A stretch of 32,000 nt of DNA from Candidatus Heimdallarchaeota archaeon. GTDB taxonomy: Archaea > Asgardarchaeota > Heimdallarchaeia > Heimdallarchaeales > Kariarchaeaceae. Below are positions 13,616 through 28,664 of this stretch, in pieces. A model generated the notes under the pieces. That model was not told the DNA's origin and did not search any database. It was given only the letters and a program-made list of their open reading frames with translations. The stretch covers positions 963,518 through 995,517 of the forward strand of contig JASBSB010000001.1 of assembly GCA_030149205.1 (NCBI GenBank), read 5' to 3'. Each line of letters opens with the position of its first letter. Positions within the stretch are counted from its first letter, which is position 1. The position numbers and the translations under genes are program-made.

Positions 13616-15244
13616 ATGTCTAAGTTAATTTTGATAAATCATATTGTGAGTCAAAACCTTAGGCAATATGTTGAAAGTATAAATAAAACCTGTGTTTCTG
13701 GGAACACATACTTTCTAGTATACTTTGGCATCGAGAGCTATTTATCTAAAGTAATCCAATTAATTGAGGACAAAGATCCGCTGGAGAGGGAAAGGGTGAT
13801 ATTTTCGATCTTTGGTGATTCGGATATATCGAAATGTGCGTCCCTCAATATTCTAATTAATAATATTCTAGGCTTAAAGTTGATGAGAGAGACTAATTTC
13901 TCTGTCATTCGTGATGCCTTATTGAATCAATTTAATACGTTGCTGAATGAATACTATCAGTTACATGTATGTGAAACATCAGTTGGAGTTCAAAACTTAA
14001 ATGACATTATCATACGATACCCATTGGTTGATATATTTGATCAAAACGAGAGAGCCGTACTCTCTGATAATCAATTAGTCAGCACTCAACAAATTGAGAT
14101 GCTCACCGTTGATAACACCAGATACCACTTTTTTGGATTAATTGGGGATAAATTAGACAAAGTTTCTGAATTTAAAGACAAATTTCTAAATTCAATCCAG
14201 CTAAACGAAGTCATTATCATTAATGTGAATATGAGTGCTGTTTATCAACATTTGCTCTCCACAAATCTTATTCCTTATTCAGCAGTTTTATCAGAGTTAA
14301 AGCTAAATGATTGTTGGCTAAACCTTTCTGATCTTGAGAAACATCGATACTCAACTAGATTACCTGACCCAAATAGGAAAAACCCAATCATTTTGGCTCC
14401 CTATTTCAAATTCATCAAAAACCACCTTTCTTCTGTTAACATCCAGTCCAATATCAACCTGTTTGAAATTTACCTTGTCTCACATGACAGAAAGCCTGAA
14501 TTTATTAATTTCCTACTTTCAAAAATTTCTAAATTCAATGACATCATATTAGAGGATAAAGGAAGAACAGTCAAAATAATTTTCCCCCAGAAAGTTAGGT
14601 TAGATACTTTGTTTGATCCCAAATTTCCAGAGTTTGAACAAATAATAGAATCAACAACCCTAGGAGAAAATATGTATCTAACAATATTGCATGGATTTCG
14701 ATTGTCTCCAGAGAAAATATTGAATAACACCCTTCCTGATGAATATGAGCTCATAAGTGATAACAATTTAGGAAACTACTATATCATTTCTAACGAAAAA
14801 GTAAACGTTAACTTACAGGATTATGTGGAGAATCGAAATGCAGTCAATCTCTTAAAAAACTTAAATGGACAGCAGTTTTTCCAAATTCAGGTGTTACCAC
14901 AAACTGACAATTTGAGCTTTCCCATTTTAACTATCGCCCAGTGGAAGAATGGAGTTTTACAGTTTACATTACCTTCGCTCTTAGACCCATTAAGTAGTAT
15001 TAACTCTTGGAAAGGGAAGTCGTTTGATGTTGTGTGTATTTTTGATAAAGGAACCTCTTTTCTGCTTAGAGGTGTAATCCAGAGTCACGATAATTTTGAT
15101 TTAAAGTATTGGCAAACAAATTTTTTTGATAAAGATCAATTTAATTTGATAAAAAGAAAAAGTGGGCTATCTGAAACATTTGAATACTATTGGCAGAGAA
15201 ACCTTTATTCTTATGAAATTGAAGAGGTGAGGATGATTGAATAA
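13616..15244 (+). CDS. Hypothetical protein (542 aa), first gene of the men/aro cluster
   Basis: Long ORF overlapping the next gene by 8 nt. No intact family signature; only weak resemblances (see findings). Confidence 0.72.
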   Translation: MSKLILINHIVSQNLRQYVESINKTCVSGNTYFLVYFGIESYLSKVIQLIEDKDPLERERVIFSIFGDSDISKCASLNILINNILGLKLMRETNFSVIRDALLNQFNTLLNEYYQLHVCETSVGVQNLNDIIIRYPLVDIFDQNERAVLSDNQLVSTQQIEMLTVDNTRYHFFGLIGDKLDKVSEFKDKFLNSIQLNEVIIINVNMSAVYQHLLSTNLIPYSAVLSELKLNDCWLNLSDLEKHRYSTRLPDPNRKNPIILAPYFKFIKNHLSSVNIQSNINLFEIYLVSHDRKPEFINFLLSKISKFNDIILEDKGRTVKIIFPQKVRLDTLFDPKFPEFEQIIESTTLGENMYLTILHGFRLSPEKILNNTLPDEYELISDNNLGNYYIISNEKVNVNLQDYVENRNAVNLLKNLNGQQFFQIQVLPQTDNLSFPILTIAQWKNGVLQFTLPSLLDPLSSINSWKGKSFDVVCIFDKGTSFLLRGVIQSHDNFDLKYWQTNFFDKDQFNLIKRKSGLSETFEYYWQRNLYSYEIEEVRMIE

Positions 15245-16871
15245 GAATCTTAGACAACTGCTTGCTGAATATAAATCGATGAATATGTACCTTCCTGATA
15301 AATCAATTCTTGGAAAAATTGGGCTTTCTAAGAATGGAAAAATTTTGATCTCCTCAAATATTTTAAACTCATTATCAGAACCTGAAAAATGTGTTATTTA
15401 TTGGTTCAAAGCCACACCAAGCTCATTGATTGAGTCAGACAGGACTCCAAGAGTTGCGATTTTCGGAGAAATTAATAATTCTGGAGAAATTATTGTGGAA
15501 AGAGAAACATGGTGGAACCGGGAGGATATAAATCTTGAAACTTTGCTTCAGAGACAAAGCAGTCTCAAAAAGTTCAATCCAAGCGATCGATTTATGAAGG
15601 TATTAAATAATCTTAAGTTACATGAGGAAGCTGTAGTTATAGGATCAATATTCAATAATCCAATTCACTTTAAAACAACAATTTATTCAAGATCAGAGGA
15701 CAAGGTGATTCTTTTCATCCCACTATCAGAGATGAGAGAACAACAACTAAAGTATACAAGAACCTTAAAAGTTCTGTGTACTATGAATAAAGAAATATCA
15801 AATCTAGAATTGATAGGAGAAGTCCTCACCTTGACCAAAAAATTTGACGGGTTGTATATTAACCTAAAAATTCGACGAATTGTTTATGGTGACCGTACAG
15901 AGTTTGAATATTTAGAGGGTGAACCTTATTCTGAGATGAAAGAATTTCTGACGGGATCTTGGGTCACATTACGATACTTTTTAGGACTTACCAGGTTCTC
16001 ATTTTTTCTGTTCCCCTTAGTTTCTGTCCTTTTGACCATGTTTTATTTGTACTCATCTGGTGTCAGTTTGTCGCCGAGGTCAATCATTTTAGAATTACTT
16101 GCGATTCTGTTTCTACAGTTATCCATGAATGTGTTTAATGACTATTTTGACAGTAAAAGTTACGCAGATATCTTTAATCCTGGACAAGGTAGTATGCATG
16201 GAGGTTCAAAATTTATAAAATTTGAGCTTATAGAACCTTCGAAATCATTTCAGATAGGAGTAATTCTTTCAGTTCTAGGATTATTTTTGAGTCTTTTGCT
16301 CATTTATTTTTCCTCTCGTTTCGATTTATTAGCCTTTGGATTTTTTGTTTTTCTTTTTGCTCTTGCTTTTTCAACCCCACCTTTAAAGCTCTCTTATAGA
16401 GGATGGGGAGAGATCCAGATTCCAATACTTCTGGTTGTCGCACCAGTTGTAGGTACAATTTATCTCTTTACTGGATCTTGGGGGTTTACACCCTTTTTTG
16501 AACTTTATGGTTTGATTATACCCCTTGCATTAACATTATTCCAATTTACATTGGTGAACAGTATGGCAGATTCAGAAGCAGATAAAAAAGCAGGAAAAGA
16601 AACATTAGCTATTAAGCTAAGTGGTAAAAATTTAACTCTTCTGTTATATGCTTCTTTTGGACTTAGCTACGTATTTTATCCACTCCTTAGTTATTTTTAT
16701 AATAATTGGGCGTTGAGCCTATTGCTCATACTTGCAATTCCACACTTCCTAGTAATTAATCAAATCACTGGATCTGACCACAACTCCAAACTAGTTGATA
16801 TGATCTCAATTAAAATTCTCATATTGTATCTTGGTTTTGGATTAATTTCTGTTTTTGCCCTTATCTTTTGA
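15237..16871 (+). CDS. menA: MenA-type (UbiA superfamily) prenyltransferase fused to a ~250-aa unknown N-terminal region
   Basis: C-terminal half is multi-pass TM with NVFNDYFD, PPLKLSYRGWGE and NSMADSEADKKAGKETLA, the Asp-rich motifs typical of MenA. Confidence 0.8.
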   Translation: MNKNLRQLLAEYKSMNMYLPDKSILGKIGLSKNGKILISSNILNSLSEPEKCVIYWFKATPSSLIESDRTPRVAIFGEINNSGEIIVERETWWNREDINLETLLQRQSSLKKFNPSDRFMKVLNNLKLHEEAVVIGSIFNNPIHFKTTIYSRSEDKVILFIPLSEMREQQLKYTRTLKVLCTMNKEISNLELIGEVLTLTKKFDGLYINLKIRRIVYGDRTEFEYLEGEPYSEMKEFLTGSWVTLRYFLGLTRFSFFLFPLVSVLLTMFYLYSSGVSLSPRSIILELLAILFLQLSMNVFNDYFDSKSYADIFNPGQGSMHGGSKFIKFELIEPSKSFQIGVILSVLGLFLSLLLIYFSSRFDLLAFGFFVFLFALAFSTPPLKLSYRGWGEIQIPILLVVAPVVGTIYLFTGSWGFTPFFELYGLIIPLALTLFQFTLVNSMADSEADKKAGKETLAIKLSGKNLTLLLYASFGLSYVFYPLLSYFYNNWALSLLLILAIPHFLVINQITGSDHNSKLVDMISIKILILYLGFGLISVFALIF

Positions 16872-16933
16872 ATCTGTACTTTGAAACATTAGCATAGATT
16901 TATACTTTTAAATTAGTATTTTTACTTGACGTA

Positions 16934-27410: not shown

Positions 27411-27413
27411 AGT

Positions 27414-28664
27414 ATGGTTGAGGTTCATAAATTCGGGGGTGCCTCATATAAGGATCAAAACAGCATTAAAATTACTCTGAAACGAATTCAGAGTCTTTCA
27501 GATAAATCAATTGTTGTAACCTCAGCATTTTATGGAGTGACTGACCACCTTCACTCTTACTCTAGAATTTCATCTTTGAATGATGTCGATAAATTTATTT
27601 CCAAACTTTTACAGATGCATAACTCAAGACTTGATGGAATTTCAGAAATAAAGATAAGCAGAGATTTGAGAGAGGTTGTTGAGCTTTATGAACTCTTGAA
27701 GGGGTACTCTATCACTGGAATAGATACACCCAGGTTTAAGGATCTCGTTATCTCATTTGGTGAACAAATCTCTGCAAAATTACTCTCAAATATTTTGGAT
27801 GCACCTTATGTTGACCCAGCTGAATTTCTACTAACAACTGATGAGCATTATTCTGCATCAGTTCTGATCAAAGAGTCCAAAAAAGTGACTATTGAAGCTT
27901 TACTCCCATTGTTTGAGGTCTCTAATATACTAATTGTACCGGGTTATTTCGGCAAAAACTCCAAAGGTGAAATTAGTCTACTCGGAAGGTCTGGTACTGA
28001 CTACTCGGCGGCTGTCATTGCAAACATGCTTAACGCAACCAAATTGGTGATCTGGAAAGATGTTACCGGCTTCATGTCTGGGGATCCAAGGGTGGTCGGA
28101 TCCCCCCAAATCATTAAATTTTTAAATTATAGTGATGCAGCAGATCTAGCATTTCATGGTGCAAAACTGTTACATCCAAAGTCAATTCACCCAGCAAGAG
28201 AGCTAAACATCCCAATAGTTATCCGAAATCTATTTGATGAGATTTCTGAGACCGTGATCTCAGATTCGACCCCGCAGATCAGTAATATAACCTATAAGTC
28301 AGGACTCAAGCTAGCAAAATATGCTTCCAAAGATCTTCATAATATTTTTCAGGAATTTCTGAGAAAAGAGCAAAGGGGTGAGATCGAGATTGTTCTTATC
28401 CATAAATTTCCGAATAACTCATGGATTCTGTATGATGATTTCTTGAATGAAGCAGAAAGTTACTGTATTGTATACGTGAAGGGAGAGTTTCTGAGAAAAA
28501 ACCCTATTTTTTATGCAGAGATGTTCAAGTGGATGAGAATACAAAACAAACAGGTGATTGACTTAAGTGTGGGTGGTGTTAATTCACCCTTAGAACTGCT
28601 GGTTAGAACAAAAGATGTTGATGACGTGGTTAAATATATACATTCAATGCTAATATCATTCTGA
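27414..28664 (+). CDS. lysC: Aspartate kinase
   Basis: VHKFGGAS, VVTSA, GEQISA, LGRSGTDYSA, KDVTGFMSGDPR, GAKLLHP; the C-terminal regulatory region is short and poorly recognisable. Confidence 0.9.
   Translation: MVEVHKFGGASYKDQNSIKITLKRIQSLSDKSIVVTSAFYGVTDHLHSYSRISSLNDVDKFISKLLQMHNSRLDGISEIKISRDLREVVELYELLKGYSITGIDTPRFKDLVISFGEQISAKLLSNILDAPYVDPAEFLLTTDEHYSASVLIKESKKVTIEALLPLFEVSNILIVPGYFGKNSKGEISLLGRSGTDYSAAVIANMLNATKLVIWKDVTGFMSGDPRVVGSPQIIKFLNYSDAADLAFHGAKLLHPKSIHPARELNIPIVIRNLFDEISETVISDSTPQISNITYKSGLKLAKYASKDLHNIFQEFLRKEQRGEIEIVLIHKFPNNSWILYDDFLNEAESYCIVYVKGEFLRKNPIFYAEMFKWMRIQNKQVIDLSVGGVNSPLELLVRTKDVDDVVKYIHSMLISF

Follow-up and report, generated by a model that had tools for sequence, protein, structure and literature searches.

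A split-barrel gene paired with a MenA-like prenyltransferase fusion in a Heimdallarchaeota genome: a candidate naphthoquinone-salvage module

Results

Gene organization of the locus

The window, that is, the whole stretch of 32,000 nucleotides analyzed here, spans positions 963,518 to 995,517 of contig JASBSB010000001.1 (C4:963518-995517 below) from a Candidatus Heimdallarchaeota archaeon (assembly GCA_030149205.1; the source genome or G000, 3.3 Mb, rated 93.5% complete). Between 13616 and 28664 it carries 12 open reading frames (ORFs) on the + strand (Table 1), with intergenic distances of -8, 62, 5, 81, 2, 6, -4, -8, -4, -11 and 3 nt. The first two, ORF13616 and a MenA-like prenyltransferase fusion, are our subject: they resemble a diverged copy of a two-gene module, present in other archaea and in bacteria, in which a small split-barrel gene precedes a MenA-like gene itself fused to split barrels, and which may serve the prenylation of salvaged naphthoquinones. 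A 52.7-kb contig of run X1, which may be the source sample, covers the whole stretch with no differences; misassembly is therefore unlikely. For comparison, 12 genomes of the family were used in all, with G001-G003 as the relatives from the same genus.

A MenA-like enzyme behind putative N-terminal barrels

The protein encoded at 15237 has about eight transmembrane helices and a UbiA domain whose Asp-rich motifs are intact (N301/D302/D305 and N441/D445/D449). It scores 37.1 bits against TIGR00751/PRK06080, below the cut-off of 102.15 for canonical MenA. In a tree it groups with the fusions of the genus (100/99) and falls outside the clade of canonical MenA (98/100), on a long branch that leaves its deeper placement unsure (end branch 2.19, versus 0.46 for MenA); fusions within the family tend to have long branches (0.8-2.4). 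The solved sequence closest to the fusion family profile is UBIAD1 (PDB 8djk, E 2.8e-21). Aligned relatives carry one or two split barrels (PF01243) N-terminal to the UbiA domain, and we read the N-terminus of about 240 amino acids as two degenerate, putative split barrels.

ORF13616 lies directly upstream on the same strand, overlapping the fusion by 8 nt, an arrangement also found in G001-G003. Direct homology searches with it matched itself alone, a search of the ESM Atlas returned no usable match, and no transmembrane helix is predicted. It has syntenic orthologues in the three genus genomes, its C-terminus aligning to the G003 copy with E 3e-6, and the same slot is occupied in other genera by a gene of 135-174 amino acids with a PF01243 domain. 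A profile of these small PNPOx proteins matches all three orthologues from the genus (E 2e-7 to 1e-4), and an hhalign comparison of the orthologue C-termini with the small PNPOx family gives a probability of 96.8 (E 2.7e-10). The AlphaFold2 (AF2) model of ORF13616 reaches pLDDT 62-86 over amino acids 431-542; Pfam on its own misses a split barrel there, and the top Foldseek matches of the C-terminus are all split barrels, with a best E of only 6e-3 (VIA: Z 6.3, root-mean-square deviation 4.0 over 112 residues). On these profile and model matches, we predict for the C-terminus a degenerate split barrel of the PNPOx type, corresponding to the small PNPOx gene that other lineages carry ahead of their barrel-MenA fusion.

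The flavin-phosphate motif S-K...I..NP.V is kept in the small-partner family, where S51, K53 and V63 are nearly invariant, and is eroded in the window and genus copies. The long N-terminal part of ORF13616 (about 400 amino acids) occurs only in this genus among the genomes searched. Its AF2 model, built with 33 aligned sequences, is of low confidence, its helical-bundle matches are generic, and a single-sequence fold of the ORF reaches pLDDT 33. A fused ubiE-like methyltransferase, as found upstream of the pair in family relatives, was considered for this part and rejected (hhalign probability 0.1). The two genes diverge rapidly: identity to the genus orthologues is 21-25% for ORF13616 and 28-29% for the fusion, versus 65% for the neighbouring geranylgeranyl-reductase-family gene (GGR), 51-57% for canonical MenA and 38-69% for the aro and asd genes.

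The module in other lineages

A GTDB scan for the module gave at least 600 matches; the locus counts that follow come from the best 80 loci, which belong to Gaiellaceae, to other Actinomycetota and to Dehalococcoidia. The small gene ends at most 250 nt from the fusion start in all 80 loci, and at most 120 nt from it in 77. Near the module we found menG in 25, a polyprenyl synthase gene in 31 and qcrB in 24 of the 80 loci, which are largely kin; the commonest order in such a quinone context is qcr-menG-polyprenyl synthase-PNPOx-fusion. The pair also occurs in a Nitrososphaerota/Caldarchaeales metagenome-assembled genome (MAG), in an Acidimicrobiia MAG, on an actinobacterial-type contig and in other Asgards. 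In family relatives of G000 it follows a ubiE-like methyltransferase gene and neighbours menF, menD, menB, menE and menA. For an actinobacterial pair, modelling the small protein in complex with the barrel of the fusion gave an ipSAE of 0.89, versus 0.01 for the best control, with contact agreement of at least 97% and partner pLDDT of at least 88; the mark applied is reached by 58 of 80 solved pairs and 2 of 110 mismatched ones.

An earlier reading of the window from its sequence only (the sequence-only reading) had proposed that two unknown regions at the head of the run may be accessory quinone components. This holds, as they are conserved partners of a MenA-like gene and are linked to quinone genes in relatives. 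The pairing of the 13616-type gene with the fusion recurs in other Asgards; the 12-gene join was not found in relatives. Although a men set bar MenH was found elsewhere in the genome, the two regions stay linked to the MenA-like gene. Literature searches, whose coverage is incomplete, found no description of the module; what is added here is its Asgard distribution, the identification of its degenerate form and its tendency toward genomes without detected de novo routes.

Several variants were seen among Asgards. In other genera of the family, a distinct ubiE/MenG-like methyltransferase gene lies directly upstream of the module (L054:7348-8082, L056:6282-7016, L085:2190-2978 and L102:6777-7415); these proteins share about 65% mutual identity and 25% identity with the MenG of G000, where none was found, and may represent a second quinone methyltransferase. 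Some fusions have two barrels, one of the actinobacterial type and one of the canonical PNPOx type (L057:7366-9147, L101, L102). Those of Heimdallarchaeaceae have one barrel and no detected partner gene, and several genomes of another family have no barrel; the existence of such barrel-less MenA-like genes implies that the barrel is not always needed. Three loci with partner and fusion in one ORF (L109, L113, L183) are left out of the evidence, since sister assemblies show frameshifts.

Carriers and ring-synthesis genes

The bacterial carriers examined are 40 MAGs, picked for their similarity to a single actinobacterial query. In one of them menD was detected, in five mqnA/D, and in 34 neither. 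As a control we took 151 genomes from the order of one carrier, filtered at 85% completeness and including one unpublished, mqn-positive genome (G144) that is not needed for any conclusion. There the module is present in 2, menD in none and mqnA/D in 148; the three genomes without mqn include the two with the module, neither of which gave an mqnC match.

In Heimdallarchaeia, a MenA-like gene was matched in most genomes. Matches to mqnA or mqnD (PF02621), the markers searched for the futalosine pathway, are absent from G000 and from all 83 genomes of the class, including 71 outside its family, and menD scores over its cut-off in 11 of the 12 family genomes (loci L007 at C8:557.4-562.9 kb in G000, L008, L010 and L018) versus 0 of 49 other Heimdallarchaeia. 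The restriction of aroA' is near-identical (10 of 12 versus 1 of 49), and most Heimdallarchaeia carriers have no aroA' match. This shared distribution of menD and aroA' suggests an acquisition at the family level. Genomes of another family (L086 and L087) combine a canonical-type menA and the barrel module with no detected menD or aroA', a gene set that is possibly another sign of ring salvage.

The remainder of the run

The gene list of the sequence-only reading, 12 co-directional and tightly spaced genes, is borne out by coordinates, spacing and family matches. Its labels stand for MenE, the shikimate genes and asd/aspartokinase; its 'menA' is a MenA-like paralogue, and its geranylgeranyl reductase falls below every cut-off (NF041080, 233 < 580; TIGR02032, 145 < 159). 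The best match of this GGR is a lipid DGGGPL (digeranylgeranylglycerophospholipid) reductase model, likewise under its cut-off, and it scores 55.7 against NF045655, for which the MenJ-type menaquinone side-chain reductase cut-off is 700. It is one of at least four close paralogues in G000, which has at least five GGR-family genes genome-wide. Profile searches of the ORFs in the run confirmed that no menF, D, H, C, B, I or G gene and no Phe, Tyr or Trp gene is present, and a sigma-70 promoter/terminator scan of the locus stayed at chance level.

Table 1. Genes of the run at 13616-28664 (window coordinates; scores are given against family cut-offs)
Gene	Position	Strand	Remarks
ORF13616	13616..15244	+	542 aa, soluble; predicted degenerate PNPOx/FMN-binding split barrel at about aa 400-542
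MenA-like UbiA prenyltransferase fusion	15237..16871	+	PF01040 above cut-off; soluble N-terminus of about 240 aa
Geranylgeranyl-reductase-family flavoprotein (GGR)	16934..18304	+	Adjoins module in genus; putative substrate lipid or quinone tail
MenE, o-succinylbenzoate-CoA ligase	18310..19746	+	TIGR01923 347 > 330
AroA' (ADH synthase)	19828..20610	+	Single copy; NF005556 276 > 241
AroB' (3-dehydroquinate synthase II, DHQS II)	20613..21626	+	Pfam 320 > 22
AroD-AroE fusion	21633..23123	+	AroE domain 230 > 200 (NCBIfam); type I dehydroquinase part weak
Archaeal shikimate kinase AroK	23120..23995	+	NCBIfam 158 > 127
EPSP synthase	23988..25265	+	NCBIfam 379 > 287
Chorismate synthase AroC	25262..26353	+	NCBIfam 408 > 212
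Aspartate-semialdehyde dehydrogenase (Asd)	26343..27410	+	Above Pfam cut-off; sole blastp hit in genome
Aspartokinase (LysC)	27414..28664	+	NCBIfam 216 > 209; 1 of 3 aspartokinase-like ORFs in genome

Comparison within the genus divides the run in two. The order menE-aroA'-aroB'-aroDE-aroK-EPSPS-aroC-asd is kept in G002 and G003 with lysC nearby, a PAS histidine kinase gene lying upstream of menE in G003, and G001 retains the aroA'-asd stretch; in the stretches read from other genera, aro genes have no adjacent menE or asd. In G001-G003 the head of the run corresponds to a trio formed, in this order, by the GGR gene, an ORF of 476-508 amino acids and a MenA-like gene of 519-540 amino acids, and the trio and the aro unit lie on separate contigs with unrelated flanks. 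GGR adjoins the module in all four genus genomes; among family relatives and the best 80 GTDB loci, none from outside the genus showed a GGR next to the module. Of the genomes compared, only G000 showed the 12-gene join, and there GGR is on the opposite side of the pair. Genes for CheB and two S-adenosylmethionine methyltransferases (window 10281-13481) flank the module and its GGR gene in G000 and have counterparts flanking the trio in relatives from the genus, in which the trio is followed by canonical menA and chemotaxis genes. The locus has therefore been rearranged in G000.

The classical Men pathway and other chorismate sinks

Taken over the whole genome, the classical Men pathway is represented in G000 by menF, D, C, E, B, A and G, each scoring over its cut-off. 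Contig C8 carries menF (299 > 225), menD (381 > 244) and menG (218 > 158), all curated cut-offs; menB is on C7 (414 > 343) and menC on C4 (303 > 201, with TIGR01928, which also covers related enolase-family enzymes), where the gene directly upstream encodes a 4HBT hotdog thioesterase, a putative MenI-like enzyme. Canonical menA is on C10 (TIGR00751, 230.8 > 102) near a CheC-like gene; as the same company is found in G002 and G003, contamination by C10 is unlikely. MenH alone is not over its cut-off, the best of 10 alpha/beta hydrolases scoring 71 versus 209 in this 93.5% complete genome, and it is over the cut-off in none of the 12 family genomes. MenH is often hard to recognize, and its step can run without an enzyme. 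The genome-wide search suggested by the sequence-only reading thus recovers every men gene but MenH over cut-off, with the MenI-like candidate beside menC, and no mqnA/D.

The trp genes, tyrA (chorismate mutase/prephenate dehydrogenase) and a second aspartokinase gene are grouped at C4:26-35.4 kb (locus L009), and aroA', aroB', EPSPS, aroC and asd each give one blastp hit in G000. These single hits indicate that the operon feeds all chorismate sinks rather than a route reserved for quinone. It is very probable, from gene order and family matches, that the run is a G000-specific juxtaposition of unit A (13616-18304) and unit B (18310-28664), the latter being the cell's only shikimate operon, with the men genes other than menE scattered. 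The sequence-only reading of a self-contained cluster channelling chorismate to a respiratory quinone is therefore not supported: menF, D and G, menB, menC and canonical menA lie elsewhere, and trp and tyrA draw on the same single operon. Nor is the supercluster itself an undescribed pathway, for which it had been named the best candidate; its aro operon and men genes belong to known families, and the join was not seen in relatives.

Also noted in G000 were a UbiD-family decarboxylase gene at L007:2363-3613, about 4 kb upstream of menF, and nine UbiA-family genes, including two resembling the synthase of DGGGP (digeranylgeranylglyceryl phosphate) and several unassigned ones at C8:142.7k, C2:627k, C2:634k and C4:19.5k.

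Discussion

A proposed role in naphthoquinone salvage

We favor the view, with a probability of about 55%, that the module is a naphthoquinone-salvage prenylation unit, secondary and fast-diverging in G000; its substrate, redox role and part in salvage, as well as its present activity in G000, belong to what is proposed. Many split barrels of the PNPOx class act as oxidoreductases with flavin or F420; PF01933, tried as an F420 marker, was uninformative, as it also matches E. coli and B. subtilis. The small split barrel and the fused barrel would assemble into a heterodimer of flavin type that sits beside the membrane prenyltransferase. This heterodimer might reduce imported or air-oxidized naphthoquinone (oxidized 1,4-dihydroxy-2-naphthoate (DHNA), 1,4-naphthoquinone or menadione) to the quinol needed by the transferase; the MenA-like transferase would then add a lipid tail, and MenG would methylate the product to menaquinone. 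In G000, Asd and LysC would make aspartate semialdehyde for AroA', chorismate would serve Trp, Tyr/Phe and the classical Men pathway, and salvage would offer an additional, secondary way to the quinone next to de novo synthesis and canonical MenA. The existence of de novo synthesis would account for the rapid divergence of this copy, with its preserved transferase motifs and eroded barrel cofactor motif. More tentatively, and with somewhat less than even odds, the pair may be an undescribed, horizontally spread menaquinone-salvage unit, a quinone reductase heterodimer on a UBIAD1-like prenyltransferase, in Asgards, Caldarchaeales and soil Actinomycetota/Dehalococcoidia that have neither men nor mqn.

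Several observations weigh against this proposal. The small-PNPOx profile does not match ORF13616 itself, so that the link runs through its genus orthologues. Many Asgards have a barrel-MenA with no detected small partner, or a MenA-like gene without a barrel. The modelled pair is the actinobacterial one and not that of the window; furthermore, split barrels are habitual dimers, and the pass may reflect solved homodimers. As to distribution, the 40 bacterial carriers are of unstated completeness, and kin among them are not independent; five have mqn and one has menD, and the Asgard family of G000 has the module and the Men pathway together. The anti-correlation in the control order is suggestive only, as it comes near to one evolutionary event and the centre genome was hand-picked.

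Alternative explanations

The barrels could instead be non-catalytic, acting as a sensor, a scaffold or a binder of lipophilic substrate that regulates a second MenA, with unit A and its GGR making or modifying a minor quinone or saturated tail in G000. The erosion of S-K...I..NP.V in the genus next to intact transferase motifs and the constant presence of GGR beside the module there are what one would expect from such a role. However, most family members retain the motif well, down to the three nearly invariant residues, and no GGR was seen next to the module in the loci compared from outside the genus, so that we consider this explanation unlikely.

Slightly less probable still is that, in lineages with neither men nor mqn, the module serves a third and so far undescribed way of making the head group of menaquinone, or some other respiratory quinone, de novo; the barrels would then perform ring chemistry instead of reduction. 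Carriers mostly have no known ring route and yet group menG, polyprenyl synthase and qcr genes in one operon, and many bacterial genomes are reported to have neither quinone pathway (Chobert et al., PMC13386864). Against this, no ring-forming enzyme consistently accompanies the module, the clustering of its neighbours having brought up local passengers only (a Rieske oxygenase gene, for example, in 14 of 80 loci), and most Heimdallarchaeia carriers, having no aroA' match, may not make chorismate by the AroA' route.

Two further explanations appear very improbable. If the unknown genes replaced missing men steps in a self-contained aspartate-to-quinone supercluster, as the sequence-only reading had it, the sole candidate gap would be MenH, which is indeed under cut-off in a genome whose genus links menE and asd to aro; but none of the 12 family genomes has a MenH over cut-off, even those in which the partner lacks the long N-terminal part, the remaining men genes sit at other places in the genome, the join was not found in relatives, and the module is common in genomes without the Men pathway. 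Unit A of G000 could equally be a decaying relic without present function, being the fastest-diverging part of the run and long-branched, were it not that each of the four genus genomes keeps the two ORFs intact and overlapping, despite an aro/asd identity of 38-69%, and that the catalytic Asp motifs are invariant.

Significance

Menaquinone-based respiration has been predicted for Heimdallarchaeia (bioRxiv 10.1101/2024.07.04.601786). If the salvage proposal is true, those with neither de novo route could obtain menaquinone for these predicted respiratory chains. Two answers are suggested to the question raised by genomes with neither pathway: the classical Men pathway in one Asgard family and, elsewhere, a putative salvage enzyme resembling MenA that is often accompanied by a split-barrel helper.

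Comparison with known systems

The menF-D-C-E-B-(I)-A-G set and aro operon of G000 are ordinary members of the Men pathway known from haloarchaea and of the archaeal AroA'/AroB' route, and differ in the host, here an Asgard family with menD in 11 of 12 genomes. An earlier survey of archaea, whose sampling predates Asgard genomes, had located the classical route in Euryarchaeota alone, above all in Halobacteriaceae (Zhi et al. 2014, PMC3914697).

The small partner and the C-terminus of ORF13616 share fold and profile with the PNPOx-like FMN (flavin mononucleotide)/F420 split-barrel oxidoreductases (PF01243; Lin2891, 3db0; Rv2991; Rv1155; MSMEG_3380). The latter are homodimers, whereas the module is a predicted heterodimer with a domain of a membrane enzyme, its motif eroded in this genus. 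The fusion has its best family matches in MenA (TIGR00751; PRK06080), with which it shares the Asp-rich motifs and the UbiA fold of about eight transmembrane helices, and its relatives adjoin men genes; it differs from MenA by its score below the cut-off, its position outside the canonical clade, its N-terminal barrels and its dedicated PNPOx partner gene.

The likeness to UBIAD1, the animal salvage prenyltransferase for menaquinone-4 (MK-4), lies in the closest solved sequence and is a profile match, from which we claim no common ancestry; UBIAD1 has no barrel domain and no partner gene. It works on reduced naphthoquinone without de novo ring synthesis, and is inactive on menadione without dithiothreitol, which its authors attribute to a requirement for the hydroquinone (PMC4398444). 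If the split-barrel helper is a reductase that supplies the quinol, the module would be a prokaryotic parallel of vitamin K salvage by UBIAD1 and a marker for quinone cross-feeding.

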